This document shows, piece by piece, positions 5,975 to 26,118 of a stretch of DNA of 27,250 nucleotides (within the stretch, counting starts at the first letter, position 1; every line of letters starts with the position of its first letter). The notes under the pieces are model-generated. The model saw only the letters and a list, made by a program, of their open reading frames with translations. It made no database searches and was not told the DNA's origin. The stretch is from Patescibacteria group bacterium (GTDB taxonomy: Bacteria; Patescibacteriota; Patescibacteriia; Magasanikbacterales; GWA2-37-8): contig SCQK01000009.1 of the NCBI GenBank assembly GCA_004321885.1, positions 1 to 27,250 of the forward strand, in the 5' to 3' direction. The position numbers and the translations under genes were made by a program.

Positions 5975-6508
5975 TTATACTATTGTGTTAAAACCCGTGC
6001 GCGCCCGAGCCAGCGACCGATGCACGCGCACTCGCGCTGTGATAACGGAAATTTCCAGCACCCGCGCGATTTCTTTAAACGGCAAATCGGCGATATAGCG
6101 CAAACGGAGCAATTCCCTGTCTTCTTCCGGCAACATTTTCAAAATCTTTTCCACCAAAAATTTTTCAGACAAATCGCCGCCGACTGAAACCGTTTGGAAA
6201 TTTTCCTCGTTAGTTTCTTCAATGGATCTCTCTCGGCCGTTCTGCCGCCAATGCTGGCGGCACTCGTTGCGCGCGATGGCAAACAGCCAGGAGCTAAACC
6301 TTACGCCGCGGGCATGAAATTTTGCCAGCGATGCTATCGCCTTGAGCCATGTATTCTGCAAAATATCATCGGCCAAACTTTTTTCGCGCAAGGTGTTCAC
6401 CAGATAGCCGTACAATTTCGGCGTGATGGCGTCCCAAAGCAAGCCCAAAGCGGCCTGTTCTCCTTTTTTGGCCCGAGCTATCAAGGCAAGTTCTTCGTGT
6501 ATTTCCAT
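5975..6508 (-). CDS. ECF-type RNA polymerase sigma-70 factor
   Basis: Region 2 ('LLWDAITPKLYGYLVNTLREKSLADDILQNTWLKAIASLAKF') and region 4 ('DRELLRLRYIADLPFKEIARVLEISVITARVRVHRSLARAR'). Start chosen at internal Met 'MEIHEEL' (ATG 6508-6506) with GGGAGG about 12 nt upstream. The ORF-track extension to 6703 runs through a promoter, structured RNA and terminator. Confidence 0.8.
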   Translation of the reverse strand: MEIHEELALIARAKKGEQAALGLLWDAITPKLYGYLVNTLREKSLADDILQNTWLKAIASLAKFHARGVRFSSWLFAIARNECRQHWRQNGRERSIEETNEENFQTVSVGGDLSEKFLVEKILKMLPEEDRELLRLRYIADLPFKEIARVLEISVITARVRVHRSLARARTGFNTIV

Positions 6509-6589
6509 AGATGTCTGTTTGCCTCCCCGTCGGGAGTGCCACCATTCTACTAAAGATAATGCGCGAAAGCAATAAAATGTTACATAAAC

Positions 6590-6614
6590 AAAAAACCGCC
6601 TCGCGAAGAGACGG
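6590..6614 (-). terminator. rho-independent terminator (- strand): CCGUCUC-UUCGC-GAGGCGG followed by UUUUUU
   Basis: Read on the - strand: 7-bp stem with one G-U pair, then a T6 run. Sits between the tRNA-like structure and the sigma gene start. Confidence 0.55.
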
Positions 6615-6623
6615 CTTTGAGTG

Positions 6624-6692
6624 TGGAGCCAAGGGGTATTGAACCCCTCTATCCGAGTGCTAACCACGGAACCCTCACCATGAGGTGGCCCC
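6624..6692 (-). ncRNA. tRNA-like degenerate element (acceptor stem plus perfect T-arm, non-canonical D/anticodon region)
   Basis: - strand: GGGGCCA...TGGCTCC acceptor pairing (7 bp with one G-U). T-arm AGGGG-TTCAATA-CCCCT with canonical T-loop. Only 69 nt, no encoded CCA, no standard D-arm. Preceded by an extended -10 'TGGTATAAT' at 6712-6720 (- strand). Confidence 0.3.
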
Positions 6693-6705
6693 CTGTACTC
6701 CACGC

Positions 6706-6720
6706 GAGCATTATACCAAA
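6706..6720 (-). promoter_or_regulatory. extended -10 promoter 'TTTGGTATAATG' (- strand) driving the tRNA-like RNA
   Basis: TGnTATAAT consensus read on the - strand. A second similar box 'TTGGTATAGTG' lies at 6794-6806 (- strand) ahead of a second small hairpin and terminator unit. Confidence 0.4.
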
Positions 6721-6732
6721 TTTTGAGGCATC

Positions 6733-6758
6733 AAAAAAGCCCGAGATATTTCTCGGAC
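6733..6758 (-). terminator. rho-independent terminator (- strand): GUCCGAGA-AAUA-UCUCGGGC followed by UUUUUU
   Basis: 8-bp stem, tetraloop and T6 when read on the - strand. Terminates a roughly 60-nt transcript from the 6794-6806 promoter-like box. Confidence 0.55.
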
Positions 6759-6898
6759 TTTCAGGGTTCAATAGAATCCGTGGTTAGCATTATCACTATA
6801 CCAATTTTAATAATATTTGTCAATATCACCTATCCACACCCCCTTTACTAAATGTCTTTTGAGAGATAAGATATATCCAGAAAATTACCCCCACCCAA

Positions 6899-6921
6899 CC
6901 TCCCCCTTATCAAGAGGGAGG
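6899..6921 (+). repeat. family B hairpin element (CCTCCCCC-loop-GGGAGG) supplying the gatB RBS
   Basis: 'cctcccccttatcaagagggagg'. GGGAGG lies 12 nt upstream of the gatB ATG. Confidence 0.6.
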
Positions 6922-6932
6922 AAACAAATTGT

Positions 6933-8498
6933 ATGTCAAAATATATTCCCATCATCGGCCTGGAAATACACGTGGAGCTAAAAACCAAGAGCAAAATGTT
7001 TTGCTCCTGCGCCAACAACCCGGACCGCCCGCCTCGCCCGACGAGCGGGCTCGTCGAGGCGGGCGACGCCCCAAACACCAATGTCTGCGAAATCTGTCTG
7101 GCGCACCCGGGCACCTTGCCCGTGCCGAATAAAACCGCTATTGAATGGGCCGCCAAAATCGCCACTGCCCTGGGATGCAAGCTCAACAAAGAAAGTAAAT
7201 TTGACCGCAAGCATTATTTTTACCCCGACCTGCCCAAGGGCTACCAGATTTCCCAATTTGACCAGCCCATCGGCGAGCACGGCTTTATTGAACTCCAATT
7301 TCCAGTCGGCAAAAACCCGCGCGAAGCGGCGCGCATCGGTATCACTCGCGTGCATTTGGAAGAAGACACGGCAAAGTTGACCCACGGGGCGAAGGGAGAA
7401 ACTTTGGTTGACTTCAACCGCGCCGGCGTGCCCCTGGTGGAAATCGTATCCGAGCCCGACGTGCAAAGCGCCGTTGAAGCCAAGAGCTATTGCCAGGAAC
7501 TGCAAAATATTTTTCGCTATCTCGGCGTGAGCGACGCGGACATGGAAAAAGGCCACATGCGCTGTGAGGCCAACGTGTCGGTGCAGGAAGAAGGAAAATT
7601 TACAAACGACAAGGGCGTGATAAAACCGACAGGAAAAAACAAACTAAACGCCAAAGTTGAAGTGAAAAATATAAACTCTTTCCGCGCCGTGGAAAAAGCG
7701 ATTGAATTTGAAATCAAACGCCAGACCGCCATGATAGAAAAAGGCGAATCATGGAAACAGCAGACCCGCGGCTGGGATGACGACAAGGGCGAAACGATTT
7801 TACAAAGAGAAAAAGAAACCTCGGCCGATTACCGCTACTTCCCCGAGCCCGATATTCCACCGTTTAATCCGGTTAAAATCACCGGCGACATCTCTTTGCC
7901 CGAACTGCCGGCCGCCAAACGGTCTCGCTTCCGCGACGAGTATGGTTTTTCTTATTCCGACGCCGACATCTTGGCCAGCGACGCGCACTGGGCGGCTTTT
8001 ACCGAACAAGTGATGAGCGAACTCGTTGACTGGCTGAAAACTTTATCCAAAAAAGAATCTCCGGCGCAAATCGCGCGGCTGGCCGGCGGCTGGATTACTT
8101 CCAAACTGATGGGCGCCATGGCCGAACGCAAAATTGACATTCGTATTCTGAAATTAAAGCCGGAAAATTTCGCCGAACTGGTCGCTTTGATTTACACAAA
8201 CAAAGTCAACTCCACCAACGCGCAAAAAATTCTGGCCGAGATGCTGAACTCGGGCGTGGACATGGACCCCACGCATATAATGGAAGACAAGGGCTACGGC
8301 CAAATAGCCGACGAAGGCAAACTGGGCGAAGTGGTTGATGAAGTGCTCAAGAGCCACCCTGAACAAGTGGCGCAATTCAAAGCCGGCAAAGAACCGATTT
8401 TACAATTTCTAAAAGGCATGGTAATGAAAGCGACCGAGGGCTCGGCCGACCCGCAAATGGCGGAAAAATTGCTGCGGGAGAGAATTAAAATATCCTGA
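6933..8498 (+). CDS. gatB: aspartyl/glutamyl-tRNA(Asn/Gln) amidotransferase subunit B
   Basis: 'IGLEIHVELKTKSKMFCSC...NTNVCEICLAHPGTLPVPN...FDRKHYFYPDLPKGYQISQFDQPIGEHG' are typical GatB motifs. C-terminal YqeY-like tail. Contains a roughly 14-aa in-frame insertion encoded by a GC palindrome. Confidence 0.9.
   Translation: MSKYIPIIGLEIHVELKTKSKMFCSCANNPDRPPRPTSGLVEAGDAPNTNVCEICLAHPGTLPVPNKTAIEWAAKIATALGCKLNKESKFDRKHYFYPDLPKGYQISQFDQPIGEHGFIELQFPVGKNPREAARIGITRVHLEEDTAKLTHGAKGETLVDFNRAGVPLVEIVSEPDVQSAVEAKSYCQELQNIFRYLGVSDADMEKGHMRCEANVSVQEEGKFTNDKGVIKPTGKNKLNAKVEVKNINSFRAVEKAIEFEIKRQTAMIEKGESWKQQTRGWDDDKGETILQREKETSADYRYFPEPDIPPFNPVKITGDISLPELPAAKRSRFRDEYGFSYSDADILASDAHWAAFTEQVMSELVDWLKTLSKKESPAQIARLAGGWITSKLMGAMAERKIDIRILKLKPENFAELVALIYTNKVNSTNAQKILAEMLNSGVDMDPTHIMEDKGYGQIADEGKLGEVVDEVLKSHPEQVAQFKAGKEPILQFLKGMVMKATEGSADPQMAEKLLRERIKIS
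7026..7065 (+). repeat. 40-nt GC-rich near-perfect palindrome inserted in-frame in gatB
   Basis: 'cgcccgcctcg' and 'cgaggcgggcg' are perfect 11-bp arms. Inner 'cgacgag-cggg-ctcgtcg' hairpin. Encodes 'PDRPPRPTSGLVEAGDAP' between the conserved 'KMFCSC' and 'PNTNVC'. Confidence 0.7.
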
Positions 8499-8552
8499 AA
8501 CAAGGGGTTGCCCTGCGGGCAAAAGTTCAGGATAACATGTGGATAAGTCGCT

Positions 8553-8581
8553 TTGACCACCGCCTCACCTTCTGCTAAACT
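8553..8581 (+). promoter_or_regulatory. candidate sigma70 promoter for carAB-pyr (TTGACC, 17 nt, TAAACT)
   Basis: -35 at 8553-8558 and -10 at 8576-8581. About 155-nt structured leader before carA. Confidence 0.4.
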
Positions 8582-8636
8582 GTTATGGATATATGCACAG
8601 CCCCACTGAAAAACCAACGGTAAAAATTATAATCGG

Positions 8637-8662
8637 CCACCCGTAGAGGGTGGTCTTTTTTT
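8637..8662 (+). terminator. intrinsic terminator/attenuator in the carA leader: CCACCC-GTAGA-GGGTGG followed by TCTTTTTTT
   Basis: 6-bp GC stem plus T-tract, 80 nt upstream of the carA ATG. Followed by a 19-bp interrupted stem (8665-8727) and an 8-bp stem 'aatccgcc-tttg-ggcggatt' abutting the start codon. Confidence 0.55.
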
Positions 8663-8741
8663 GATAACTCTCGAAATTTTGGAGCCATAGGCGAACAAAA
8701 TTTCGCAAGAGTTATCAATCCGCCTTTGGCGGATTACATTT

Positions 8742-9893
8742 ATGTACCCAGCACGGTTAATTTTAAACACCGGCCAAGAATTTCTCGGCCTTTCACCCGC
8801 CTGGCAAAAAGGCGACTTTTACGGTTTACCCTCACACCAAAAATTTTGGTGTGAGGGCGAGGTTGTTTTTACGACCGGCATGACCGGCTATGTGGAAACT
8901 CTCACCGATCCTTCGTATGCCGGACAAATTATCGTCTTCACCTATCCGCTCATCGGCAACTACGCCGTGCCGCCGGCCAAATTCTGGGAATCGGAAAAAA
9001 TCCACGCGGCCGGAGTGGTGGTAGGCGAGGCGTGCCAGTGGCCTGATACCCCCTCCTCACCTCCCTCCCGAAACAAGTTCGGGACAGGCTCTTATAAAGG
9101 GGGAGGGACTTTGGCCGGATGGCTAAGAGAACAAAAGGTGCCTTTACTCACCGGGGTGGATACTCGCCTGCTTACCAAAACACTACGCGAGAAGGGTGCC
9201 ACGCCCGGAGCGATTACGTCTTACCCCTACCTAACCTCCCCCTTAAAAAGGGGGAGGAACAGGAGGGGGTATAATTTCTTTGACCCGAACGAAACAGATC
9301 TGGTGGCGCTGGTTTCTCCCAAAAGACCGACCACTTACGGCAAGGGGAAAAAGAGAATCATCGCCGTTGATTGCGGGATGAAAAAAAATCTGCTCCGCTC
9401 ACTCTTAAAATTACCGCTGACTATAAAAATCGTGCCGTACGACTACGATTATAACAAAGAAAAATTTGACGGCGTGTTTATCTCCAATGGCCCGGGCGAC
9501 CCGGAACGTTGCGGCCGAACGATAGAAATTCTGCGCCGCGCCATGAAAAAGAAAAAACCGATTTTCGGCGTCTGTCTGGGCAACCAGCTGTTAGCACTGG
9601 CGGCCGGAGCCAAAACCTACAAACTGCCCTTTGGCCACCGCGGACAAAATCAACCCTGCCAAGACAGCGCCACTGGCCGTTGTTATATCACCAGCCAAAA
9701 CCACGGCTACGCCGTGAACCCGGCCACCCTGCCGCCGGACTGGCGCGTGAGTTTCAAAAACTTAAACGACGATTCAGTGGAAGGCATCGGCCACAAATCA
9801 TTGCCGTTTTTCGCCGTGCAATTTCATCCCGAAGCGGCGCCCGGCCCCGCAGACACGCAGTGGCTTTTTGAAAAATTTTATGAAACTTTATAA
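8742..9893 (+). CDS. carA: carbamoyl-phosphate synthase small (glutaminase) subunit
   Basis: 'VVFTTGMTGYVETLTDPSYAGQIIVFTYPLIGNY', 'PIFGVCLGNQLLALAAGAKTYKLPFGHRGQNQP' (catalytic Cys), 'FAVQFHPEA'. Two in-frame family B element insertions. Confidence 0.9.
   Translation: MYPARLILNTGQEFLGLSPAWQKGDFYGLPSHQKFWCEGEVVFTTGMTGYVETLTDPSYAGQIIVFTYPLIGNYAVPPAKFWESEKIHAAGVVVGEACQWPDTPSSPPSRNKFGTGSYKGGGTLAGWLREQKVPLLTGVDTRLLTKTLREKGATPGAITSYPYLTSPLKRGRNRRGYNFFDPNETDLVALVSPKRPTTYGKGKKRIIAVDCGMKKNLLRSLLKLPLTIKIVPYDYDYNKEKFDGVFISNGPGDPERCGRTIEILRRAMKKKKPIFGVCLGNQLLALAAGAKTYKLPFGHRGQNQPCQDSATGRCYITSQNHGYAVNPATLPPDWRVSFKNLNDDSVEGIGHKSLPFFAVQFHPEAAPGPADTQWLFEKFYETL
9049..9108 (+). repeat. family B element (compound) in-frame in carA
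   Basis: 'cccctcctcacctccctcccgaaacaagttcgggacaggctcttataaagggggaggg' encodes 'PSSPPSRNKFGTGSYKGGG'. Contains inner hairpin TCCCGAA-acaag-TTCGGGA. Confidence 0.6.
9235..9272 (+). repeat. family B element in-frame in carA
   Basis: 'cctccccc-ttaaaaa-gggggagg-aacaggagggggtat' encodes 'SPLKRGRNRRGY'. Confidence 0.65.
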
Positions 9894-12800
9894 AGTTATA
9901 ATTCTCGGTTCCGGAGGATTGCAAATCGGCCAGGCCGGCGAGTTTGATTATTCGGGCTCCCAGGCCATCAAGGCCCTGAAAGAAGAAGGCATCAAAACCG
10001 TGCTGGTAAACCCCAACATCGCCACTGTTCAAACCGACCCAAACATGGCTGACGCGCTCTATCTTCAGCCGCTCAATTTTCAAACACTTAAAAAAATTAT
10101 CGCCAAAGAAAAACCGGACGGCATTTTGCTCGGCTTTGGCGGACAAACCGCGCTCAATCTGGGTTTGGAACTGGATGAAAAAGCCGTACTCCAAAAATAC
10201 GGCATGGCCGTGCTGGGTAGCGATACGCAAACAATACGAACAGCCGAAGACAGAAATTTATTCAAAATCGCGCTGGCGAAAATCGGAGTGAAGACTCCGA
10301 AAAGTTTTACCGCGCGCGACGTGAATGAAGCGCTGGCCGCGGGAAAACAAATCAGCTACCCCTTGATGATTCGCAGCGGCTTCTCTTTGGGCGGACTTGG
10401 TTCCGGAAAAATCGCCGACGCGCGGGAACTGAAACAACGCGCAGGCGAAGCGCTCTCCGGCGCCCCGCAAATCCTGGTGGAAGAATACCTGGGCGGCTGG
10501 AAAGAAGTGGAATACGAAGTGGTGCGCGACAGAAAAGACAACACCATTATTGTCTGCAACATGGAAAACATGGACCCGATGGGCATCCATACCGGTGAGA
10601 GCATCGTGGTGGCGCCTTCGCAGACCTTGAACAACGAACAGTATCATCGCCTGCGCGAGCTGTCCATCAAAATCGCCCGCCACCTGAAAATCATCGGCGA
10701 ATGCAACGTGCAATTCGCCTTGCACCCGAAAACCGGCGACTATCGCGTGATAGAACTCAACCCGCGCCTGTCGCGTTCATCGGCTCTGGCTTCCAAAGCC
10801 ACGGGCTATCCCCTGGCCTACATCGCGGCCAAGCTGGCCATCGGCAAACTTTTGCCTGAACTCAAAAATTCAGTCACCAAAAAAACCTCGGCCTTTTTTG
10901 AACCGGCCTTGGATTATCTGACAATAAAAATTCCGCGCTGGGACACAAACAAACTGCGCTCGGCCGAACGCTCCATCGGCTCGGAGATGAAAAGCGTGGG
11001 CGAAGTGATGGCCATTGGACGCTCGTTTCCCGAAGCATTGCAAAAAGCCGTGCGTATGCTGAATATCGGCGCCGACGGGCTAAGCGATTATCCGTTTCCC
11101 ATCGCCGAACCGAAAAAAGAAATGGAGAACGCCACCGACCGACGTTTGTTCGCGCTTTACCAATTTTTTAAAAAAGGCGGCGGCGTAAAAGAAGCCGGGC
11201 AACTTACGAGTATAAACGAATGGTTTCTGGCGCACATCAAAAACATCGCGGCGCTGGAAAAAACAATCAAAAATAAACGACTAACGCCAGCCCTGCTTTT
11301 ACAAGCCAAGCAATTCGGCTTTAGCGACGTCGGTCTGGCAAAATTAAAAAATACTGACGAGAAAAAAATCAGGCGCCTGCGCAAAAAAAACAAAATCCTG
11401 CCGTGCTTTAAACAAATAGACACCCTGGCCGGCGAATATCCGGCCGAGACGAATTATTTATACGCCACCTACCACGGCGCCGGACACGATATCGCCGCTT
11501 TGGACAAAAAACCGATCATCGTCCTCGGCTCTGGTCCGTACGCCATCGGTTCGTCGGTGGAATTTGACTGGTGCGCCGTGAACACGGCCCGCGCCCTGCG
11601 CGCCTTGGACAAAAAAACAATAATGCTCAACTCCAATCCGGAAACAGTCTCCACTGACTACGACGAATCCGACCGTTTGTATTTTGAAGAGCTGACTTTG
11701 GAGCGCGTGGCTGACATCGCTGATTTTGAAGGCGGCGCGAAGGCGTCTTTTGAATCTACACCCGGCATTGTTGTTTCGGTCGGCGGACAAATCGCCAATA
11801 AAATCGCTCTGCCGCTTTTTGAAATGGGTTATAAAATTTTAGGCACCCCGCCCGTGGCCATAGACCAGGCCGAAGACAGACAAAAATTTTCCTCACTCTT
11901 GAATAAATTAAAAATAGACCAGCCGGAATGGATTGAGTCGGGTAATTTGAGTAAAGCCAAGGCTTTCGCCAAAAATTTCGGGTATCCGGTCCTGGTGCGG
12001 CCGTCATACGTGCTCTCTGGCGCGGCCATGAACGTGTGCCCGAACGAAGATGAACTGACAAACTATCTACGTTCGGCTTCGGCCGTTTCTCCCGACCATC
12101 CGGTGGTTATTTCCAAATTTATCACCAATGCCAAAGAGTTAGACATAGACGGAGTGGCCGACAAGGGAAAAATTATAATAGAAGCGATTTGCGAACACGT
12201 GGAAAACGCGGGCGTGCACTCGGGCGACGCCACCCTGGTCTTGCCCCCGCAAAAACTTTATTTGGAAACGATTCGCCGCGCCAAAAACATCGCTCGCGCC
12301 ATCGCCAAATCACTCAAAATCACCGGGCCCTTTAACATCCAGTTCATTGCCAAGGATAACGCGCTCAAAGTGATAGAGTGCAACTTGCGCGCTTCCCGCT
12401 CTTTTCCTTTCGTATCCAAAGTGACCGGACATAATTTCATAGAACTGGCCACCAAGGCCATGCTGGGCGGTGTTGGAGTTCCTCCCCCTCTTAGGGGGAG
12501 GATAAAGGAGGGGGTATTTGAAACCCTGGAGCTCAACCACGTCGGCGTGAAGTCGCCGCAATTTTCTTACCACCGACTGAAAGGAGCCGACCCGGTGGCG
12601 CAAGTGGAAATGGCTTCCACCGGAGAGGTGGCCTGTATCGGCGGCGATTATTTGCGCGCCTTTTATTCTTCCTGGCTGGCCACGGGCAAAAATATCAGCC
12701 GCCGCCGGGCGCTTGTCACCATTGCCGATGAATGCAAACAAAAATTCTTGCCATTAGTGAAAAAAATGGACAAACAGGGCTGGGAAATATATACTACTGC

Positions 12801-14690: not shown

Positions 14691-15857
14691 ATGAGCCGGC
14701 TCATAACTTTACCCGCTTTGATTGACCCGCACGTGCATTTTCGTACCCCGGGTTCCGAGCACAAAGAGGATTGGATTTGCGGAGCGCGCGCCGCCTTCGC
14801 CGGCGGATACACCACGGTGATTGACATGCCGAACAACAACCCGCCGGCGATTGATGAAGAGTCATTGAATAACAAAATCAAGCTCGTGGAACAACAACTG
14901 TCATTCCTGCGAAAGCAGGAAGGGAGCCCTTCGGGCTCGGAATTCATTTCTGTCCACCCATATTTTTATCTCGGGGTTACTCCCCTCCCCCTTGATAAGG
15001 GGGAGGCAGGGTGGGGGTCGGCGGTAGCCCTCAAAATGTTCATGGGTTCCAGCACCGGCAGTTTGCTGGTGGACAAATACGAAGACCAGGAAAAAATATT
15101 CGCCAAAGCCGCTGAACTTGATTTGCTGGTGGCAGTGCACGCAGAAGATGATGAAACAATAAAAAATAATCAACTGTCATTCCAGCAAAAGCTGGAATCC
15201 ATCGCCAATCCAGTCGCTCTTCACTCGCAAATCCGCTCGCGTGAGGCGGCGATAAAAGCCGTGTCGCAAGCGATTGAACTGGCGGAAAAGACCGGCGCGC
15301 GATTATATATCTGCCATATTAGCACAAAGGAAGAAGCTGAATTGGTTAAATCGGCTAAAGAGCGCGGAGCCAAAATTTATGCCGAAGTCACACCGCATCA
15401 TTTGTTTCTGAACGAAAGCGCGTATGAAACATTGGAGACAAAAGCGCAAATGAATCCGCCTCTGCGCACGGCCGCGGACCAAGCGGCGCTCTGGCAGGCG
15501 ATAAACGACGGAGTAATAGACACCATCGGCACCGACCACGCTCCGCATACTTTGGAAGAAAAAAATCAACCATACCCCAAATCGCCTTCGGGCGTGCCCG
15601 GCATTGAGACATGTTTGCCGCTATTGCTCAACGCGTACAATCAGGGTAAAATCAGTTTAGAGAAAATAGTGGAATTATGCCGGACAAATCCGCAAAAAAT
15701 ATTCCGTTTGCCTGATAACAGTGACGAGGTGATTGTGGATTTGGATTTGGAAAAAGAGGTAAAAAATGAGAATTTAAAAACTAAATGCGGCTGGTCGCCC
15801 TTTGCTGGGTGGAATCTAAAGGGGTGGCCGATAAAAACGATAATTATGAAAAAGTAA
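14691..15857 (+). CDS. pyrC: dihydroorotase
   Basis: 'LIDPHVHFRTPG' metal-binding motif, 'GTDHAPH'. Contains three in-frame element insertions. The stop codon lies inside the left terminal repeat of a MITE-like element. Confidence 0.85.
   Translation: MSRLITLPALIDPHVHFRTPGSEHKEDWICGARAAFAGGYTTVIDMPNNNPPAIDEESLNNKIKLVEQQLSFLRKQEGSPSGSEFISVHPYFYLGVTPLPLDKGEAGWGSAVALKMFMGSSTGSLLVDKYEDQEKIFAKAAELDLLVAVHAEDDETIKNNQLSFQQKLESIANPVALHSQIRSREAAIKAVSQAIELAEKTGARLYICHISTKEEAELVKSAKERGAKIYAEVTPHHLFLNESAYETLETKAQMNPPLRTAADQAALWQAINDGVIDTIGTDHAPHTLEEKNQPYPKSPSGVPGIETCLPLLLNAYNQGKISLEKIVELCRTNPQKIFRLPDNSDEVIVDLDLEKEVKNENLKTKCGWSPFAGWNLKGWPIKTIIMKK
14899..14921 (+). repeat. family A short hairpin in-frame in pyrC
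   Basis: 'tgtcattcctgcgaaagcaggaa' is TTCCTGC-GAAA-GCAGGAA. Encodes 'SFLRKQE'. Followed by a small hairpin 'gagccc-ttc-gggctc'. Confidence 0.7.
14982..15018 (+). repeat. family B element in-frame in pyrC
   Basis: 'cccctccccc-ttgataa-gggggagg-cagggtgggggt' encodes 'PLPLDKGEAGWG'. Confidence 0.7.
15175..15198 (+). repeat. family A short hairpin in-frame in pyrC
   Basis: 'tgtcattccagcaaaagctggaat' is ATTCCAGC-AAAA-GCTGGAAT. Encodes 'LSFQQKLE'. Confidence 0.7.
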
Positions 15858-16028: not shown

Positions 16029-16982
16029 ATGAAACATCTAATCTCCCTAAAGGAACAAACAAAAGAAGACCTGCTGGAAATTTTGGATTTAGCAAAAAAA
16101 GTTAAAGCCACATACAAGGCCGGTGAGACGATGGAGCCATTAAAAAACAAAACCCTGCTCATGCTTTTTCAAAAAAGCTCCACGCGCACGCGCCTGTCGT
16201 TTGAGGCCGGCATAACCGAACTGGGCGGACACGCCATTTTTCTGGACAGCCGCGCCACGCAATTTTCGCTCACTGATTTCGGCGATGAAATAAAAGCCGT
16301 AATGCGCTTTGGCGACATCCTGATGTTTCGGGCCATGAAAGCGGCGGACGTGGAAAAGGCGGCGGGCTTCAATCAGATTCCGGTGATAGACGGTTGCAGT
16401 GAAAAATATCACCCGTGCCAGGCCTTGGGAGACATTTTGACAATGAGTGAGCATGCCAATGGACTGGAAAACGTGAAAAAAATCACTTGGCTGGGAATTG
16501 AAAACAACGTCTCTAACACCCTGACGCTGGCCGGCGCCAAACTGGGAATTGAAGTGACCATCGCCGCGCCCGAAGCCAACCCGGCCAGCGTGGACGCGGA
16601 GTTAAACGCCCAGGCCTCTGCCGTCGGCAAAGTGACACGCACTTTGAATTTGGCCGAAGCGCTGGCTGGCGCGAATTTCATCCACACCGACACCTGGATG
16701 GATATGGAATTTTTTTCCGACGGAAAAGTGAAGCCGCAATTTGAAGCCGAATACGAACGGCGCAAACGGGTGTTCACGCCTTTTCAACTAAACGCGGGCT
16801 TAATAAACACCCACGCCCCGCAAGCGAAAATTATGCACTGCATGCCGTGTCATGTGGGCTATGAAATTTCACGCGACGCCATAGACCATCCCAATTCAAT
16901 AATTTTTGACCAGGCGGAAAATCGCAAACACATCCAAAAAGCGATTATTCTTTGGCTACTTGGTATTCCCTCCCCTTTATAA
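16029..16982 (+). CDS. ornithine-carbamoyltransferase-family transcarbamylase paralog (substrate uncertain)
   Basis: 'STRTRLSFE', 'HPCQALGDILT', 'HCMPC' (OTC HCLP-type) and a C-terminal 'SIIFDQAENRKH' closely like OTCase. The ornithine-binding 'DxxxSMG' is 'DTWMDME'. Confidence 0.75.
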   Translation: MKHLISLKEQTKEDLLEILDLAKKVKATYKAGETMEPLKNKTLLMLFQKSSTRTRLSFEAGITELGGHAIFLDSRATQFSLTDFGDEIKAVMRFGDILMFRAMKAADVEKAAGFNQIPVIDGCSEKYHPCQALGDILTMSEHANGLENVKKITWLGIENNVSNTLTLAGAKLGIEVTIAAPEANPASVDAELNAQASAVGKVTRTLNLAEALAGANFIHTDTWMDMEFFSDGKVKPQFEAEYERRKRVFTPFQLNAGLINTHAPQAKIMHCMPCHVGYEISRDAIDHPNSIIFDQAENRKHIQKAIILWLLGIPSPL

Positions 16983-18072: not shown

Positions 18073-18945
18073 ATGGATAGTACAAAATTCTTAAAAATAG
18101 AAAAAATAACAGACGAAACCCCGTTCGTCAAAACATTCTATTTTAATCATCGCCTAAACAGCAAGCCCGGGCAATTTGTGATGCTCTGGCTACCGGGAAT
18201 TGACCAAAAACCGTTTTCCATCGGCTGGGAAGATGAAAACGGCTTTGCCCTGACTGTGTTCAATCGCGGACCGACGACGAACAAACTGTTTGAAATGAAA
18301 GCCGGCGAACGAGTGGGCATTAGCGGGCCCTACGGTACTTCTTTTTCCGTGCGCCCAAACACGCGCTATATCATGGTCGCCGGCGGCTATGGCGCCGCGC
18401 CTCTTTCTTTTTTGGCCAAGCAGCTATCTGTCATTGCGAGGAGCGTAGCGACGAAGCAATCCCAATCTACAAAAATTGATTTCCTCCTCGGCGCCCGCTC
18501 GGCCGAACACGTGCTATTTGAAGACCGTCTGTCAAAATTACCCAACACCAAAATCCACATCGCCACCGACGACGGCAGTAAGGGACATAAGGGATTTGTG
18601 ACCGACCTGCTTTCATCTGTCATTCCTGCGAAAGCAGGAATCCACGACAACTCACTGGATGCCCGTTTTCACGGGCATGACATATTCGTCTGCACTTGCG
18701 GCCCCGAACTGATGGAAAAAAAAGTTTTGGACGCTTGCAACGTCGCCGGCGTGGAATGCGAAATCAGCATTGAACGCTACATGAAATGCGGCGTGGGCGT
18801 GTGCGGACAATGCGCCGTGGACGACCTGGGCCTGCATATGTGCAAAGAAGGGCCGGTGGTAAGCGGCGCGCTCGCCAGTCAAATTAAAGAGTTCGGCGTC
18901 TACCATCGCGACAAAAGCGGGAAAAAAGTATACTTCGAAAATTAA
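18073..18945 (+). CDS. pyrK: dihydroorotate dehydrogenase electron-transfer (FAD/2Fe-2S) subunit
   Basis: FAD/NAD-binding fold and C-terminal 'CGVGVCGQCAV' cluster motif. Two in-frame family A insertions. Confidence 0.85.
   Translation: MDSTKFLKIEKITDETPFVKTFYFNHRLNSKPGQFVMLWLPGIDQKPFSIGWEDENGFALTVFNRGPTTNKLFEMKAGERVGISGPYGTSFSVRPNTRYIMVAGGYGAAPLSFLAKQLSVIARSVATKQSQSTKIDFLLGARSAEHVLFEDRLSKLPNTKIHIATDDGSKGHKGFVTDLLSSVIPAKAGIHDNSLDARFHGHDIFVCTCGPELMEKKVLDACNVAGVECEISIERYMKCGVGVCGQCAVDDLGLHMCKEGPVVSGALASQIKEFGVYHRDKSGKKVYFEN
18429..18463 (+). repeat. family A half-element in-frame in pyrK
   Basis: 'tgtcattgcgaggagcgtagcgacgaagcaatccc' matches the left 35 nt of the 13111 element with one mismatch. 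Encodes 'SVIARSVATKQSQ'. Confidence 0.75.
18618..18642 (+). repeat. family A short hairpin in-frame in pyrK
   Basis: 'tgtcattcctgcgaaagcaggaatc' matches the pyrC copy at 14899. Encodes 'SVIPAKAGIH'. Confidence 0.75.
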
Positions 18946-19006: not shown

Positions 19007-19082
19007 GAAACGAACCGAGGGACCAAGTGACCCAAGCCCTTCCGATTTGGCGAAAGGGCTGAGGCACCAAGGATCCCAGGGC

Positions 19083-19730
19083 CTACTTGCCGCGAGGAAG
19101 GAGATAGGAGGCGCCGAAGCCGTAGACAACCCAGCGGACGTCCAGCACCCAGCGAGCGCCGACCCAGGAGAGACAGGCCACGTAGAGGCCGCCACGCCGG
19201 CCGCGCAAAAGCGTGCCCGGCAGGACGATGATCTTGTCCTGCATCTCCTTCGGGATCTCGGCCTGGCACTCCAGCATACGCTTGCCATCCACCAGGCCGT
19301 AGTTGGCCTTGAGGACGACGGCGCGGGCGCGCATGACCTCGCCGTTGACATAGCCCGGGTCATCGGGCTCGAGGAAGGACACATACTCCAAGTCCTTCAC
19401 CTCGAACTGCGACGGGGCCACATCCTCCACCACCTCCCACTTGCGCTTCTTGCCTGCCTCGTCCTCGTACTCGGGGATGAGGTCGGCGGCGAGCAACTCG
19501 GACGGGAGCTGGTCGCGCTTGATCGATGCCGCCACGCTTTCGCCGTTTTCCTCGCCGATCGGCTCCAGCTTCAGCCGGAGCTTGCCGGCGCGAAACAGCT
19601 CCACGTTCTGCGCGCCCGTCTCACATCCGCCGAACTCCGCCCACAGCTTGAGGATCATGGCCCAGATCTGCTTCCCTGTCAGACCCTCCAGCACGGCCTC
19701 CAGTGTCTTCCCTTCCACTCTCGAACTCAT
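19083..19730 (-). CDS. hypothetical protein in a GC-rich (about 62% GC) inserted segment
   Basis: ATG with AAGGAG 7 nt upstream. Balanced E/K/D/L composition, unlike the Ala/Arg/Leu-rich overlapping frames. Terminator downstream. Interrupts pyrK...pyrE. Confidence 0.5.
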   Translation of the reverse strand: MSSRVEGKTLEAVLEGLTGKQIWAMILKLWAEFGGCETGAQNVELFRAGKLRLKLEPIGEENGESVAASIKRDQLPSELLAADLIPEYEDEAGKKRKWEVVEDVAPSQFEVKDLEYVSFLEPDDPGYVNGEVMRARAVVLKANYGLVDGKRMLECQAEIPKEMQDKIIVLPGTLLRGRRGGLYVACLSWVGARWVLDVRWVVYGFGASYLLPRGK

Positions 19731-19895
19731 GGCTGTTCTCCTTTCCGGCGCCTCGCCAGAATGGCAATTTGCCCCGCCCCGGGGCTCGGGTTTTTATGCT
19801 AAAAATAACAAAGAGCTAACAGCGATTTATATCACAACATTACTGCTTCTGTCAAGCTAAACACCGTCACAACCGCCATATCCTTTCACAAACCC

Positions 19896-19928
19896 TTGCG
19901 CGATTATCTGCGCGATTCTTGCGCGATT
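19896..19928 (+). promoter_or_regulatory. three direct repeats of TGCGCGATT (11-12 bp spacing) just upstream of the fic -10
   Basis: 'ttgcgcgatt' 19896, 'ctgcgcgatt' 19908, 'ttgcgcgatt' 19919. Operator- or iteron-like. Confidence 0.5.
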
Positions 19929-19938
19929 TAATTTTTTA

Positions 19939-19947
19939 TGGTATGAT
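19939..19947 (+). promoter_or_regulatory. extended -10 promoter TGGTATGAT for fic-pyrE-pyrF
   Basis: TGnTATGAT 29 nt upstream of the fic ATG. Same box type as 'TGGTATAAT' at 6712-6720. Confidence 0.45.
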
Positions 19948-19975
19948 ATTGGCAAGGAATTCTTCGGCCTAAACT

Positions 19976-21031
19976 ATGTTTGAACCAAAGTATAAAATCA
20001 CCAATCAAATCATCCAGATGCTCACCGCCATCGCCGAGGCCAAGGCGATTATTGAACGCGCGCGCCTTTTGCCGAAGCACGAACTCAAACTGCGACGCCA
20101 GGCCCTTCTCCGCATGACCCACAGCTCCACGGCCATAGAAGGCAACCGGCTGAATATGCGCGAAGTGGAGGCCGTGGCGGCGCGCAAAAAAGTGGATGCC
20201 CCGGAACGCGAAATCTATGAAGTAAAAAACTACCTGGAAGCGATTCGCTACATTGAAAAAGTCGTAAAAAACAACCAGCCAATCACCGAAAAGATTATCT
20301 TACAAATTCACCGGCTTGTAACCGACAAAACTTTGCCGGCACATTCCTCGGGGCAATATCGCAAAGGGCCGGTGTATGTGGTGCGGCGCTGGAGAGACGG
20401 CCGCCAGGAAGTTTTGTATACCGCGGCTGGCGCCGGACAAGTCCCCGGTCTTATGGCCGGCTTAACGCGCTGGCTCGCTGAAAGTGAAACGCAAAATATC
20501 AGCCCAGTCATCGTGGCCGGTATCGCGCACCAGGAAATCGCGGCTATTCACCCCTTTGCCGACGGTAATGGCCGCACCGCGCGCGCCCTGGCCACGCTTA
20601 TCCTTTACCGACGCGGCTACGACTTTCGCCGCCTTTTCGCCCTGGAAGATTTCTACAACGAAGACAGGCCGTCGTATTATCGCGCCATCAACGTCGGCAA
20701 AAACTACCAACAGCGCCGCGTTGATTTTACGCCATGGCTGGAATATTTTGTGCGCGGATTTAAGGAAGAAATTATTAAAGTGAAAAATAACGTGCTCACA
20801 CTATCGGCCAAAAAGGTTGACAAAAAAATTGAAGCGCAAATTTATCTTGATAAAGACCAGCTCAAAATTTTGGAGTTTGCCGACCAGATGGGAAAAATAT
20901 CCGTGGGCGACGTGGTGGATATTTTGAGTTGTCCCAAACGCACCGCCCAATCGTATCTACAAAAATTAAAAAAACTGAAAATTATCCGGCAAGTCGGCAA
21001 AGGGCCGGCCAGCGGATATATAATAGCGTGA
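19976..21031 (+). CDS. fic: Fic/Doc family protein (class II, N-terminal inhibitory helix) with C-terminal winged-helix domain
   Basis: Fic motif 'HPFADGNGRTARAL'. Inhibitory motif 'STAIEG' ([ST]xxxE[GN]) near the N-terminus. C-terminal HTH-like 'ISVGDVVDILSCPKRTAQSYLQKL'. Stop is 6 nt before the pyrE ATG. Confidence 0.85.
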   Translation: MFEPKYKITNQIIQMLTAIAEAKAIIERARLLPKHELKLRRQALLRMTHSSTAIEGNRLNMREVEAVAARKKVDAPEREIYEVKNYLEAIRYIEKVVKNNQPITEKIILQIHRLVTDKTLPAHSSGQYRKGPVYVVRRWRDGRQEVLYTAAGAGQVPGLMAGLTRWLAESETQNISPVIVAGIAHQEIAAIHPFADGNGRTARALATLILYRRGYDFRRLFALEDFYNEDRPSYYRAINVGKNYQQRRVDFTPWLEYFVRGFKEEIIKVKNNVLTLSAKKVDKKIEAQIYLDKDQLKILEFADQMGKISVGDVVDILSCPKRTAQSYLQKLKKLKIIRQVGKGPASGYIIA

Positions 21032-21037
21032 TTTTTT

Positions 21038-21634
21038 ATGCTCAAGAAACTAATCATCAAACTCCACGAAATCAACGCCGTCAAATTCGGGGAATTCAAA
21101 TTAAAAAGCGGAATAATGTCGCCGATATACATTGACTTGCGGGTGACGATTTCTTATCCCGAAGTTTTGAAAATGGTGGCCGAGGCCATGTGGGAAAAAG
21201 TCAAAGACGTTAATTTTGATTTGATTTGCGGAGTGCCTTACACCGCCCTGCCCATTGCCACGGCCATTTCTCTGGCGCATGACAAACCAATGATCATGCG
21301 GCGCAAGGAAGTAAAGGACTATGGCACGAAAAAAGCGATTGAAGGCGCGTTTGTCGCCGGACAAAAAGTATTGGTGGTGGAGGATTTGGTGACGAGCGGC
21401 AGTAGTGTGTTTGAAACGATTGAACCTTTACAACACGAAGGATTGACGGTGAGCGATATTGTGGTGTTGGTGGACCGCGAACAGGGCGGCCGCAAGCATC
21501 TGGCGGAAAAAGGGTTTAATTTACATTCGGTTTTGACGATTTCGGAAATGTTAGCTGTTTTGGTAGAAGCCAGTAAATTGGACAACGCGATGGCGGATAA
21601 GGTGAAAGATTTTATAAACGCGAATCAAGTATAA
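21038..21634 (+). CDS. pyrE: orotate phosphoribosyltransferase
   Basis: 'KFGEFKLKSGIMSPIYIDLR' and PRPP motif 'VLVVEDLVTSGSS'. Confidence 0.9.
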   Translation: MLKKLIIKLHEINAVKFGEFKLKSGIMSPIYIDLRVTISYPEVLKMVAEAMWEKVKDVNFDLICGVPYTALPIATAISLAHDKPMIMRRKEVKDYGTKKAIEGAFVAGQKVLVVEDLVTSGSSVFETIEPLQHEGLTVSDIVVLVDREQGGRKHLAEKGFNLHSVLTISEMLAVLVEASKLDNAMADKVKDFINANQV

Positions 21635-21640
21635 CAAATA

Positions 21641-21754
21641 CCCCTCCCCCACCCTCCCCTTATAAAGGGGAGGGTGCAATTTTCCTCCCCCTTTATAAGG
21701 GGGAGGCTCGCCACCACACCAAATGCTTTGGTGTGGTGGCGAGGAGGGGGTAAA
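21641..21754 (+). repeat. two tandem family B hairpins plus a 14-bp perfect hairpin and SD tail in the pyrE-pyrF spacer
   Basis: 'ccctcccc-ttataaa-ggggaggg', 'cctccccc-tttataa-gggggagg', 'ctcgccaccacacc-aaatgcttt-ggtgtggtggcgag' (21707-21743), then 'gagggggtaaaaatt' before ATG. Confidence 0.7.
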
Positions 21755-24164: not shown

Positions 24165-24250
24165 ACCCCCTCCTCTGTCCTCCACCTAAAAGGGGGAGAA
24201 AAGTGACAGTGTTACCCCTCCCTCGCCCTCCCCTTATAAAGGGGAGGGAA
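24165..24250 (+). repeat. compound family B element in the nif3-hypothetical spacer
   Basis: 'cccccctcctctgtcctccacctaaaagggggag...cccctccctcgccctcccc-ttataaa-ggggaggg'. Confidence 0.6.
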
Positions 24251-25215: not shown

Positions 25216-25233
25216 AATATGTACCTAACTTTT

Positions 25234-25270
25234 CTCTCCCCTTTATAAGGGGAGAGACAGAGAGGGGTAA
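25234..25270 (+). repeat. family B element upstream of nif3
   Basis: 'ctctcccc-tttataa-ggggagag-acagagaggggtaat'. Confidence 0.65.
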
Positions 25271-25559: not shown

Positions 25560-26118
25560 ACGCTCTGGTGGAGTATTCGCCCGTTTCGGTATTTACCAGA
25601 ATCTCTTCGCCTTCTTTTATGAATATCGGGGCCTGAATTTTTAATCCGTTTTCCAAAGTGATTTCTTTGGTGACGTTGCCCGAAGCGCTGTCGCCCTTGA
25701 CCGCCGGCGGCGCGTCAATCACCTTGTATTGAATCTTTTTCGGTATCTGCGCGGAAACCGGCCGGCCCTCGTACAGCCCCACGACCACGTCTATCCCTTC
25801 TTTCAGATACTTGGCCTCGTCGCCGAGCAAATCGTTGTTCATCTCTATCTGCTCATAGGTGCTCATGTTCATGAAAGCGAAATTGGCGCCGCTTTTGTAC
25901 AAATACTGCATAGAATGAAACTCCACCTCCACGATATCCACGCTTTCGCTGGTTTTGTAGGTTATTTCAATCACCTTGCCCGAGGCCAAACTTTTCATCC
26001 GCACGCGCACAAAAGCCGCGCCCTTGCCAGGGTTGACGTGCTGAAAATCCACCACGACAAACAAATCATTCTGGTGCCTGATGACTACCCCTTTTCTGAT
26101 TTCGCTGGTAGGGGCCAT
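25558..26118 (-). CDS. efp: translation elongation factor P
   Basis: 'VDFQHVNPGKGAAFVRVRMK' (modifiable Lys in the PGKG loop). Three OB/KOW-like domains. 186 aa. Confidence 0.9.
   Translation of the reverse strand: MAPTSEIRKGVVIRHQNDLFVVVDFQHVNPGKGAAFVRVRMKSLASGKVIEITYKTSESVDIVEVEFHSMQYLYKSGANFAFMNMSTYEQIEMNNDLLGDEAKYLKEGIDVVVGLYEGRPVSAQIPKKIQYKVIDAPPAVKGDSASGNVTKEITLENGLKIQAPIFIKEGEEILVNTETGEYSTRA

Follow-up and report, generated by a model that had tools for sequence, protein, structure and literature searches.

A putative ribosome-mediated transcription attenuator upstream of carA in the pyrimidine operon of Magasanikbacteria-like Patescibacteria

Described pyrimidine leaders and the gatB-carA spacer

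In Escherichia coli and Salmonella, the pyrE gene behind rph is preceded by an intrinsic terminator that is situated between promoter and gene, and the open reading frame (ORF) upstream runs up to or into this terminator. The same arrangement is found at pyrBI with its leader ORF pyrL, where control needs neither an antiterminator RNA nor a repressor protein, the ribosome itself blocking the terminator hairpin (PMC5021804). In this study, we analyzed the 243-nucleotide (nt) spacer between gatB and carA on a 27,250-nt NCBI contig from a Patescibacteria group bacterium (the whole contig is called the window below), and compared it with the carA leaders of related genomes. We favor, with moderate confidence, the reading that this spacer controls carA and the pyrimidine operon by ribosome-mediated attenuation of transcription, in the manner of pyrBI and pyrE of E. 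coli, and the signal that it senses is probably either uridine triphosphate (UTP) or translation capacity. Very little has been learned so far about how genes are regulated in Patescibacteria, the candidate phyla radiation (CPR) of uncultured bacteria with reduced genomes, and few of its members are known to make pyrimidines at all.

As in pyrBI and pyrE, the carA leader has a terminator between promoter and pyrimidine gene and an ORF that reaches it. In contrast with pyrL, the ORF has 13-21 codons rather than 44, lacks a Shine-Dalgarno sequence (SD) and begins 2-5 nt from the predicted 5' end; moreover, the leader of the window is A-rich instead of U-rich, although a U7 run is present, and the organism is an uncultured member of Patescibacteria. 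With regard to homology with pyrL, no Rfam match was found in the leader and the peptides have 13-21 residues versus 44, a judgement made without direct comparison to the PyrL sequence. As far as its sequence goes, the carA leader is thus an analogue of pyrBI and pyrE and not a member of that group by descent.

Several other described systems were compared. The carAB operon of E. coli is controlled by tandem promoters, reiterative transcription and DNA-binding factors, and its arginine-regulated promoter P2 is not under attenuation (PMC6245113). Reiterative-transcription control, which operates at E. coli carAB P1, pyrBI and upp and at B. subtilis pyrG, was rejected for our locus, as the homopolymeric initial run that it requires (PMC6245113) is absent: the bases after the -10 element are gttatggatatATG in the window, and no TTT/GGG-type run is conserved in the 12 carA loci described below. 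The polycysteine small ORFs of mycobacteria (bioRxiv 10.1101/834739) resemble the proposed carA attenuator in that the operon downstream is controlled by translation of a very short ORF that lacks an SD and lies at the start of the transcript. However, they contain runs of Cys codons and exert translational control through an RNA duplex that hides the ribosome-binding site, whereas the carA leader has no codon runs and would target a terminator. An AUG at the very 5' end is characteristic of the mycobacterial leaderless type; in the carA leaders the ATG is located 8-11 nt after the -10 element, for which an untranslated leader of 2-5 nt is predicted.

PyrR attenuation, which occurs in Bacillus and many Gram-positives and is represented by the PyrR family in Rfam, likewise acts at a terminator within the leader of pyr operons. 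A PyrR attenuator was rejected here, since neither the PyrR binding loop, nor antiterminator or anti-antiterminator stems, nor a pyrR gene could be found in the 27-kb contig. An earlier reading based on the letters of the DNA alone (the sequence-only reading) had likewise reported no PyrR box and no pyrR, and this was confirmed: no Rfam family reached its gathering score in the window, no PyrR match was obtained at E<=10 in 8400-8900, and the only small phosphoribosyltransferase gene of the window, at 21038-21634, is pyrE (NF010382, 234 bits against a cutoff of 208). The Rfam scan that had been suggested at the same time gave no match at the leader of the window or at the 11 related loci, apart from an unrelated tRNA in one of them (L152). 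Leader peptide and intrinsic terminator are also combined in trpL, hisL and pheL; a classic amino-acid attenuator of this kind was rejected for want of a regulatory codon run and of the alternative 2:3 antiterminator structure. A riboswitch was rejected as well, with no Rfam match and a leader that is unstructured and only 47-77% identical between relatives. Finally, Li et al. (2016; PMC4824070) found that a stop codon located at most a few nt 5' of a terminator stem abolishes termination when the ORF is translated. The stop placement in the carA leaders agrees with this geometry; that effect is general and occurs at gene ends, whereas we propose a dedicated regulatory leader for carA.

Conserved layout of the leader in related carA loci

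Informative relatives were gathered by protein searches followed by look-up of the encoding contigs. They were L019, L021/L022 (a Magasanikbacteria metagenome-assembled genome, MAG), L143, L144, L145/L146, L148-L150, L151, L152-L156, L157-L162 (Magasanikbacteria RIFCSPHIGHO2), L163 and L020. L005 (a Chlamydiae MAG) was added from a genome-collection scan with CarA. The comparison set consisted of 12 carA loci (the window and 11 others) from 9 independent lineages, 11 of the loci belonging to Magasanikbacteria-like Patescibacteria and one to the Chlamydiae MAG, and the layout was annotated in all of them by one script after the spacers had been read. The GatB protein of the window is 70-77% identical to Magasanikbacteria proteins in the protein search, and the closest relative is L019 (76% identity in CarA and 86% in GatB). 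In most relatives gatB is located upstream of carA; an upp-like gene lies between the two in L143 and L144, a tRNA takes the place of gatB as the upstream neighbor in L152, and the upstream gene of L005 is also not gatB.

First, the promoter that the sequence-only reading had considered possible gained support from the comparison. It matches 9 of 12 positions in the scan and has a TG before the -10 element; the -35 element, a spacer of 17-18 nt and a TAnnnT -10 element are kept at the same position and spacing in all 12 loci, and the predicted transcription start is approximately G8588/A8589. A TGTGGATAA box with 0-1 mismatch occurs 4-6 nt 5' of the -35 element in two thirds of the leaders (8/12), and L157 has a reversed copy at a distance of 9 nt. 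Among the 163 fetched loci, the composite pattern of box, -35 and -10 elements was present in carA leaders only. The box probably adds control of initiation by a DNA-binding protein. Read in reverse complement, it gives the DnaA-box consensus TTATCCACA, and the putative binder is possibly DnaA.

Second, the list of elements in the sequence-only reading was made up of real parts and overlooked the key one, a conserved short ORF that ends at or in the terminator. In every locus (12/12) an ATG located 8-11 nt after the -10 element opens an ORF of 13-21 codons, and the first base of its stop codon falls at -9 to +10 relative to the first base of the terminator stem. The stop codon is inside the terminator loop in the window, L019, L148 and L005, abuts the stem in L021, L143 and L144, and lies 4-6 nt 5' of the stem in L145, L151, L152, L157 and L163. 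Two of these loci, L157 and L163, were obtained after the rule of stop placement had been set, and both conform to it. For a statistical test, the bases between the ATG and the stem were shuffled and the first in-frame stop was scored against the observed 20-nt zone. The P value per locus was 0.04-0.08 where the stop lies upstream of the stem and 0.38-0.59 where it lies in the fixed loop, the product over the 9 lineage representatives being 3e-9. In the remaining two frames, the first stop mostly comes well before the stem.

The ORF region also diverges in a frame-preserving manner. Between the window and L019 it shows 71% identity over 42 nt with 0 indels; between L143 and L144, 77% identity over 43 nt, where 3 changes are synonymous and the stop changes from TAG to TAA; and between L021 and L144, 47% identity over 43 nt, again with 0 indels. 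The terminator is 93-100% identical across these three comparisons. The peptide sequence itself is poorly conserved across the 12 loci, and no motif is common to all lineages.

Third, the intrinsic terminator proved to be significant (folding free energy, dG, -16.2; z -3.9), with only 1 of 200 dinucleotide shuffles folding as well, and it is the top terminator-like match on the plus strand of 6500-10500. The sequence-only reading had recognized it at 8637-8662; the element is real, and its stem begins 2 nt earlier, at 8635. The terminator of L019 is identical. Across the lineages, 7 distinct stem sequences were observed, each fully paired with G-C, A-U and G-U pairs only and followed by T6-T8 (z -3.1 to -6.7), the related loci having a GC stem of 6-9 bp before this run. 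Since MAFFT put some stems out of register, the base pairs were counted hairpin by hairpin with a script. With promoter and terminator kept in 12 loci from 9 lineages and with compensatory changes in the stem, the earlier proposal of a regulatory terminator in the carA leader that works without PyrR is upheld.

The terminator is the only structure in the leader: folding of 8585-8662 gave the terminator alone, with no significant structure upstream of it (z -1.0) and no alternative antiterminator helix. An antiterminator RNA is therefore neither needed nor visible, and the ORF would be the sole conserved feature able to prevent termination, a ribosome at its stop codon being placed over part or all of the 5' arm. 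In seven loci (L019, L143, L145, L148, L157, L163 and L005) carA begins 0-18 nt after the U-run, which leaves no room for a separate promoter, so that carA has to be transcribed by read-through; the element is thus an attenuator by position. In the window, too, the promoter scan found no promoter-like site between 8663 and 8741.

The unit is a feature of this clade rather than something generic to regions upstream of carA. Only L005 among 16 more distant carA loci has the promoter-ORF-terminator unit. In L020 (1-170; CarA 63% identical) a homologous leader has decayed: where the terminator should be it has cggTcaccTaatagagTAgcTattttt, with stem arms that have lost their complementarity and a shorter U-run, which looks like a natural loss of the attenuator. 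A scan of a genome collection with CarA gave best matches of only 57-59% identity from mixed phyla, whose upstream regions are unrelated except for that of L005. A metagenome scan with the pattern GGCCACCC-N5-GGGTGG-N3-TTTTT returned at least 120 unrelated terminators, none of which adjoined carA or gatB, the pattern being too generic. The coordinates of all features are listed in Table 1.

Table 1. Features of the gatB-carA spacer and of its surroundings in the window
Feature	Position	Strand	Remarks
gatB	6933-8498		Directly 5' of the spacer; Pfam/NCBIfam
Small hairpin ttgccc-tgc-gggcaa	8508-8522	+	After the gatB stop; z -0.07, no better than shuffles; absent in L019
TGTGGATAA box	8538-8546	+	6 nt 5' of the -35 element; sole perfect copy in the 27-kb window
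Predicted sigma-70-type promoter	8553-8581	+	TTGACC-17-TAAACT; TG before the -10 element; scan, 9/12 matches
Leader ORF (MHSPTEKPTVKIIIGHP*)	8593-8646	+	17 codons and stop; no SD; ATG 11 nt after the -10 element; stop TAG 8644-8646 in the terminator loop
Second promoter-like site	8606-8633	+	CTGAAA-16-TATAAT; scan, 10/12 matches; start would fall in the terminator 5' arm
Predicted intrinsic terminator	8635-8662	+	8-bp stem GGCCACCC/GGGUGGUC (8635-8642/8648-8655), loop GUAGA, U7 8656-8662
Long palindromic hairpin	8663-8716 (extendable 8661-8718)	+	10 bp, 2-nt bulge, 10 bp, inner 3 bp
GC hairpin	8717-8735	+	AATCCGCC-TTT-GGCGGATT (RNA AAUCCGCC-UUU-GGCGGAUU), 7-8 bp; ends 6 nt before the carA ATG
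carA	8742-9893	+	Heads the operon; ATG 8742; Pfam and NCBIfam; N-terminus aligns with homologues
Palindromes within carA	8828-8857, 9047-9113, 9221-9271		
Palindrome within carB	12478-12515		
Palindromes within pyrC	14894-14925, 14981-15018, 15170-15201		
Palindromes within pyrK	18426-18476, 18613-18644		
Second box-promoter-ORF unit	6838 to 6737	-	TGTGGATAG, 6 nt, TTGACA-17-TATAGT, 4 nt, 9-codon ORF MLTTDSIEP*
Terminator of the second unit		-	Stop abuts AAGTCCGAG-aaatat-CTCGGGCTT-T6; divergent region between gatB and the sigma-factor gene

The attenuator reading and its alternatives

In the mechanism that we propose, transcription would start at the conserved promoter (8553-8581), and the first 50-odd bases of the RNA, A-rich and unstructured, would carry the 17-codon ORF, nearly leaderless at 2-5 nt from the predicted 5' end and devoid of an SD, with its stop codon in the loop of the strong terminator at 8635-8662. 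If RNA polymerase arrived at the U-run before a ribosome entered the hairpin, the hairpin would form and the transcript would end at about 8660, with a length of some 70-75 nt; if the first ribosome were close behind, it would cover the 5' arm, no hairpin could form, and polymerase would continue into carA. Polymerase and the first ribosome would thus compete in a race that decides the outcome, which is also how the pyrBI (pyrL) and pyrE attenuators of E. coli work. A shortage of UTP would hold polymerase back, also at U7, and thereby favor read-through; general translation capacity could be sensed likewise, fast and abundant ribosomes relieving a default termination. The hairpins at 8663-8735 would at most modulate mRNA stability or carA translation, the latter because the GC hairpin would sequester a weak SD-like GGCGGA.

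Two observations from E. coli bear on this mechanism. When a stop codon was moved from 28 to 5 bp before a terminator, termination fell from approximately 90% to less than 10%, and translation was required for this effect (PMC4824070). Also, attenuation at pyrBI needs tight coupling of pyrL leader-peptide translation to transcription (PMC5021804, citing Roland 1988).

On the other hand, several points weigh against the attenuator reading. The transcription start, the termination and the translation of the ORF are all predicted. The leader of the window is A-rich and G-poor with a U content of 17% (17-39% in the leaders overall), so that the U-rich pause region known from pyrL of E. coli is missing, and the case for UTP sensing comes mainly from U7 and the function of the operon. 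The leader peptides contain no run of regulatory codons, and the signal cannot be deduced from codons. With the ATG 8-11 nt after the -10 element, the predicted untranslated leader has only 2-5 nt and no SD; short leaders reduce leaderless initiation about 2-fold per nt in Caulobacter, and 1 nt already inhibits in E. coli (PMC8459731), so that, judged by the bacteria with such measurements, leaderless initiation on an RNA of this kind would be inefficient. Both the window and L019 have a TATAAT just 5' of the hairpin, and transcripts initiated there could escape the terminator. Lastly, a look-alike unit of box, promoter, ORF and terminator lies on the minus strand (6838 to 6737) upstream of the sigma-factor/small-RNA region, which argues against a signal specific to pyrimidines and could mean that these units are autonomous.

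Four alternatives to the attenuator reading were considered. The terminator might be regulated by a trans-acting factor or by a ligand, with the ORF being incidental: an RNA-binding protein or a small RNA could act on it, or the 50-nt leader might contain a small riboswitch. In favor of this, one short leader motif, AAAAAUUA, is shared by the window, L148, L151 and L152 and another, ACAAYTGA, by L021, L143, L144, L145 and L157, and the stems of 5 loci are identical in sequence and not just in structure; however, the leader drifts to 47% identity with ORF length and frame kept, its fold is not significant (z -1.0), none of the 12 leaders contains an Rfam family, and no candidate regulator gene is linked within the window. 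We regard this explanation, which takes in the unknown factor of the sequence-only reading and leaves the stop-placement statistic unexplained, as unlikely.

It is also rather improbable that there is no regulation at all and that the hairpin and U-run just stop transcripts of gatB and of the leader, as a leaky terminator or an insulator, with carA expressed by constitutive read-through or, in the window, from the CTGAAA-16-TATAAT site. A plain terminator downstream of gatB would need neither a promoter nor a frame-conserved ORF ending at it, and the upstream promoter is kept in all 12 loci, among them two (L152 and L005) that have something other than gatB upstream. The CTGAAA-16-TATAAT site does match 10 of 12 positions, and transcripts starting from about 8640 could not form the hairpin; yet L019 keeps its TATAAT only, and nothing comparable is found in the other 10 loci. 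Furthermore, a terminator as strong as this one (dG -15, U7), only 0-18 nt away from the gene that opens a 9-gene pathway, would be costly if uncontrolled.

The third alternative is an autonomous small gene that merely adjoins carA, made up of the promoter, the short ORF and the terminator and yielding a small RNA or a micropeptide; it appears to be very unlikely. The look-alike unit at 6838 to 6737, which shares the TGTGGATAG box, has a 9-codon ORF whose stop abuts its terminator and is followed by another promoter, would fit this explanation, as would the activity in trans reported for a terminated attenuator RNA, rnTrpL (PMC6614838). However, the peptide is poorly conserved, the RNA is unstructured save for the terminator, carA has no other possible promoter in 7 loci, where read-through is obligatory, and the unit stays with carA when the upstream gene changes (L152 and L005).

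Least probable of all, we believe, is an ORF that senses an amino acid or metabolite by ribosome stalling at its conserved Thr-Ile-Asp codons or at a C-terminal Pro-stop, on the model of the classic leader peptides, of TnaC or of the fungal arginine attenuator peptide, which precedes CPA1/arg-2, a homologue of carA: residues 7-9 are T-I/T-D/Q in L021, L143, L144, L145 and L157, the peptides of the window and L019 end in Pro-stop, a slow-release context, and the operon also feeds arginine synthesis through the OTCase (ornithine transcarbamylase)-like gene at 16029-16982, but there are no repeated regulatory codons and no motif common to all lineages, and a ribosome held at codon 9 would be too far upstream to cover the stem, giving the opposite polarity. 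All of these alternatives fit the stop-placement and frame-conservation data less well than the ribosome-mediated attenuator does.

Variable hairpins, neighboring elements and significance

Much of the weight in the sequence-only reading had been placed on nested long hairpins downstream of the terminator. These hairpins are real: the long one is highly significant (dG -28.0, z -8.3; 0/200 shuffles fold as well), and so is the GC hairpin (dG -11.7, z -4.0 against shuffles), while the region 8585-8760 as a whole has a z of -5.6. The coordinates needed correction, as the core of the long stem is 8663-8716 instead of 8665-8727, whose end runs into the GC hairpin, and the latter ends 6 nt, not 5, before the carA ATG. 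More importantly, they lie outside the conserved core and are missing in the closest relative, so the emphasis on them was misplaced. Both are absent from L019, where the carA GTG directly follows the U-run, and from L143, L145, L148, L157 and L163. A long hairpin followed by a GC hairpin is found at the same place in L021, L144 and L151; the long hairpins there are unrelated in sequence to that of the window, of which no other copy was found in the window or in any fetched locus. The GC hairpin is similar in L021 and L144, shows compensatory changes in L151 (ACCCGCC/GGCGGGU), only ever occurs alongside a long hairpin, and has no further copy elsewhere in the window. With relatives that lack this segment, others that carry unrelated sequences in its place, and a genome colonized by palindromic repeats, we read 8663-8735 as a lineage-variable insert downstream of the conserved attenuator core.

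The absence of a canonical SD before carA had been noted correctly; a weak SD-like GGCGGA is nevertheless present at 8728-8733, in the 3' arm of the GC hairpin and 8 nt before the ATG, and is probably masked by this hairpin. The small hairpin after gatB had also been listed; it exists, and its fold is not significant and not conserved in L019, so that it is probably irrelevant.

The operon downstream has the gene order carA-carB-pyrB-pyrI-pyrC-argF-like (OTCase-like)-pyrD-pyrK-two unrelated ORFs-pyrE-pyrF (Pfam/NCBIfam). It is split between pyrK and pyrE (19047-21031), where a 251-aa ORF without family match and a Fic/DOC-family gene are located. Families of short palindromic repeats were observed within coding sequences, e.g., CCTCCCCCTTATAAAGGGGGAGG, TGTCATTGCGAGG..CGAAGCAATCCC and CTGTCATTCCTGCGAAAGCAGGAATCCA, and recall the Rickettsia palindromic elements; those in carA correspond to 3 insertions, LPSHQKFWCEG, PPSRNKFGTGSYKG and SYPYLTSPLKRG, all in frame when compared with the closest homologue. 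Palindromes of the form CCTCCCC-loop-GGGGAGG occur just 5' of the start codons of gatB (6885-6923) and pyrF (21682-21719), with more copies before minus-strand genes (24165-24250 and 25232-25270), and in these the SD GGAGG would pair with an anti-SD-like arm. For many other genes, including ruvA, pyrE, the argF-like gene and the ORF ending at 26118, the region upstream is rich in U and lacks an SD.

Additional elements were found beside the second unit. On the minus strand, from 6717 to 6590, an extended -10 element (TGGTATAAT) is followed by a structured RNA of about 110 nt (minimum free energy -51.6, z -4.2). It is closed by a GUGGAG/CUCCAC stem, has an arm like the T-arm of a tRNA (GGGGUUCAAUACCCC) and possesses a terminator of its own. 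ARAGORN calls no tRNA in it, and the sole weak Rfam match is the tRNA-like mascRNA (E 0.047); it is possibly an unclassified tRNA-like small RNA. The upstream part of the listed sigma-70-family ORF (5975-6703, minus strand) overlaps this RNA. That ORF is probably over-extended: the ATG at 6506 (MEIHEELALIARAKKGEQ..., with GGAGG 13 nt upstream) fits the domain positions. In L143 (1455-1575) and L144 (1405-1515), between gatB and the upp-like gene, a promoter TTGACT-17-TACAAT is followed after about 55 nt by a hairpin and U-run (AACCCAG...CTGGGTTTTTT), with a downstream ACGGAC complementary to the loop; this may be a second pyrimidine-related leader element.

In our survey of the literature on attenuation, on pyrimidine synthesis in Patescibacteria and on CPR translation signals, we did not find an attenuator of this kind described. 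With the attenuator that we propose, the "repression without repressors" known from the pyr genes of enterobacteria would reach carA and a distant phylum, in a form that has an ORF of only 13-21 codons and neither SD nor antiterminator. For annotation, the lesson is to look past the conspicuous long hairpins, which are inserts that vary between lineages; function would reside in an inconspicuous short ORF and the terminator. Defined at the sequence level, such an attenuator would offer a testable handle on how nucleotide synthesis is tuned in these cells, and an indirect read-out of how closely ribosomes trail RNA polymerase.

The window alone contains the module twice, once at the pyrimidine operon and once ahead of the sigma-factor region. 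On this basis, we tentatively raise the possibility, which is still doubtful, that a box-controlled promoter, a near-leaderless mini-ORF and a terminator, with the U-run as an SD-less landing site, constitute a general regulatory device of Magasanikbacteria-like CPR. If true, operon transcription would be tied by such a device to how fast the first ribosome moves, hence to nucleotide triphosphate supply or translational capacity, and possibly to DnaA via TTATCCACA. It would then rank as the earliest cis-regulatory mechanism to be defined in this uncultured radiation and would provide evidence of transcription-translation coupling in these organisms.

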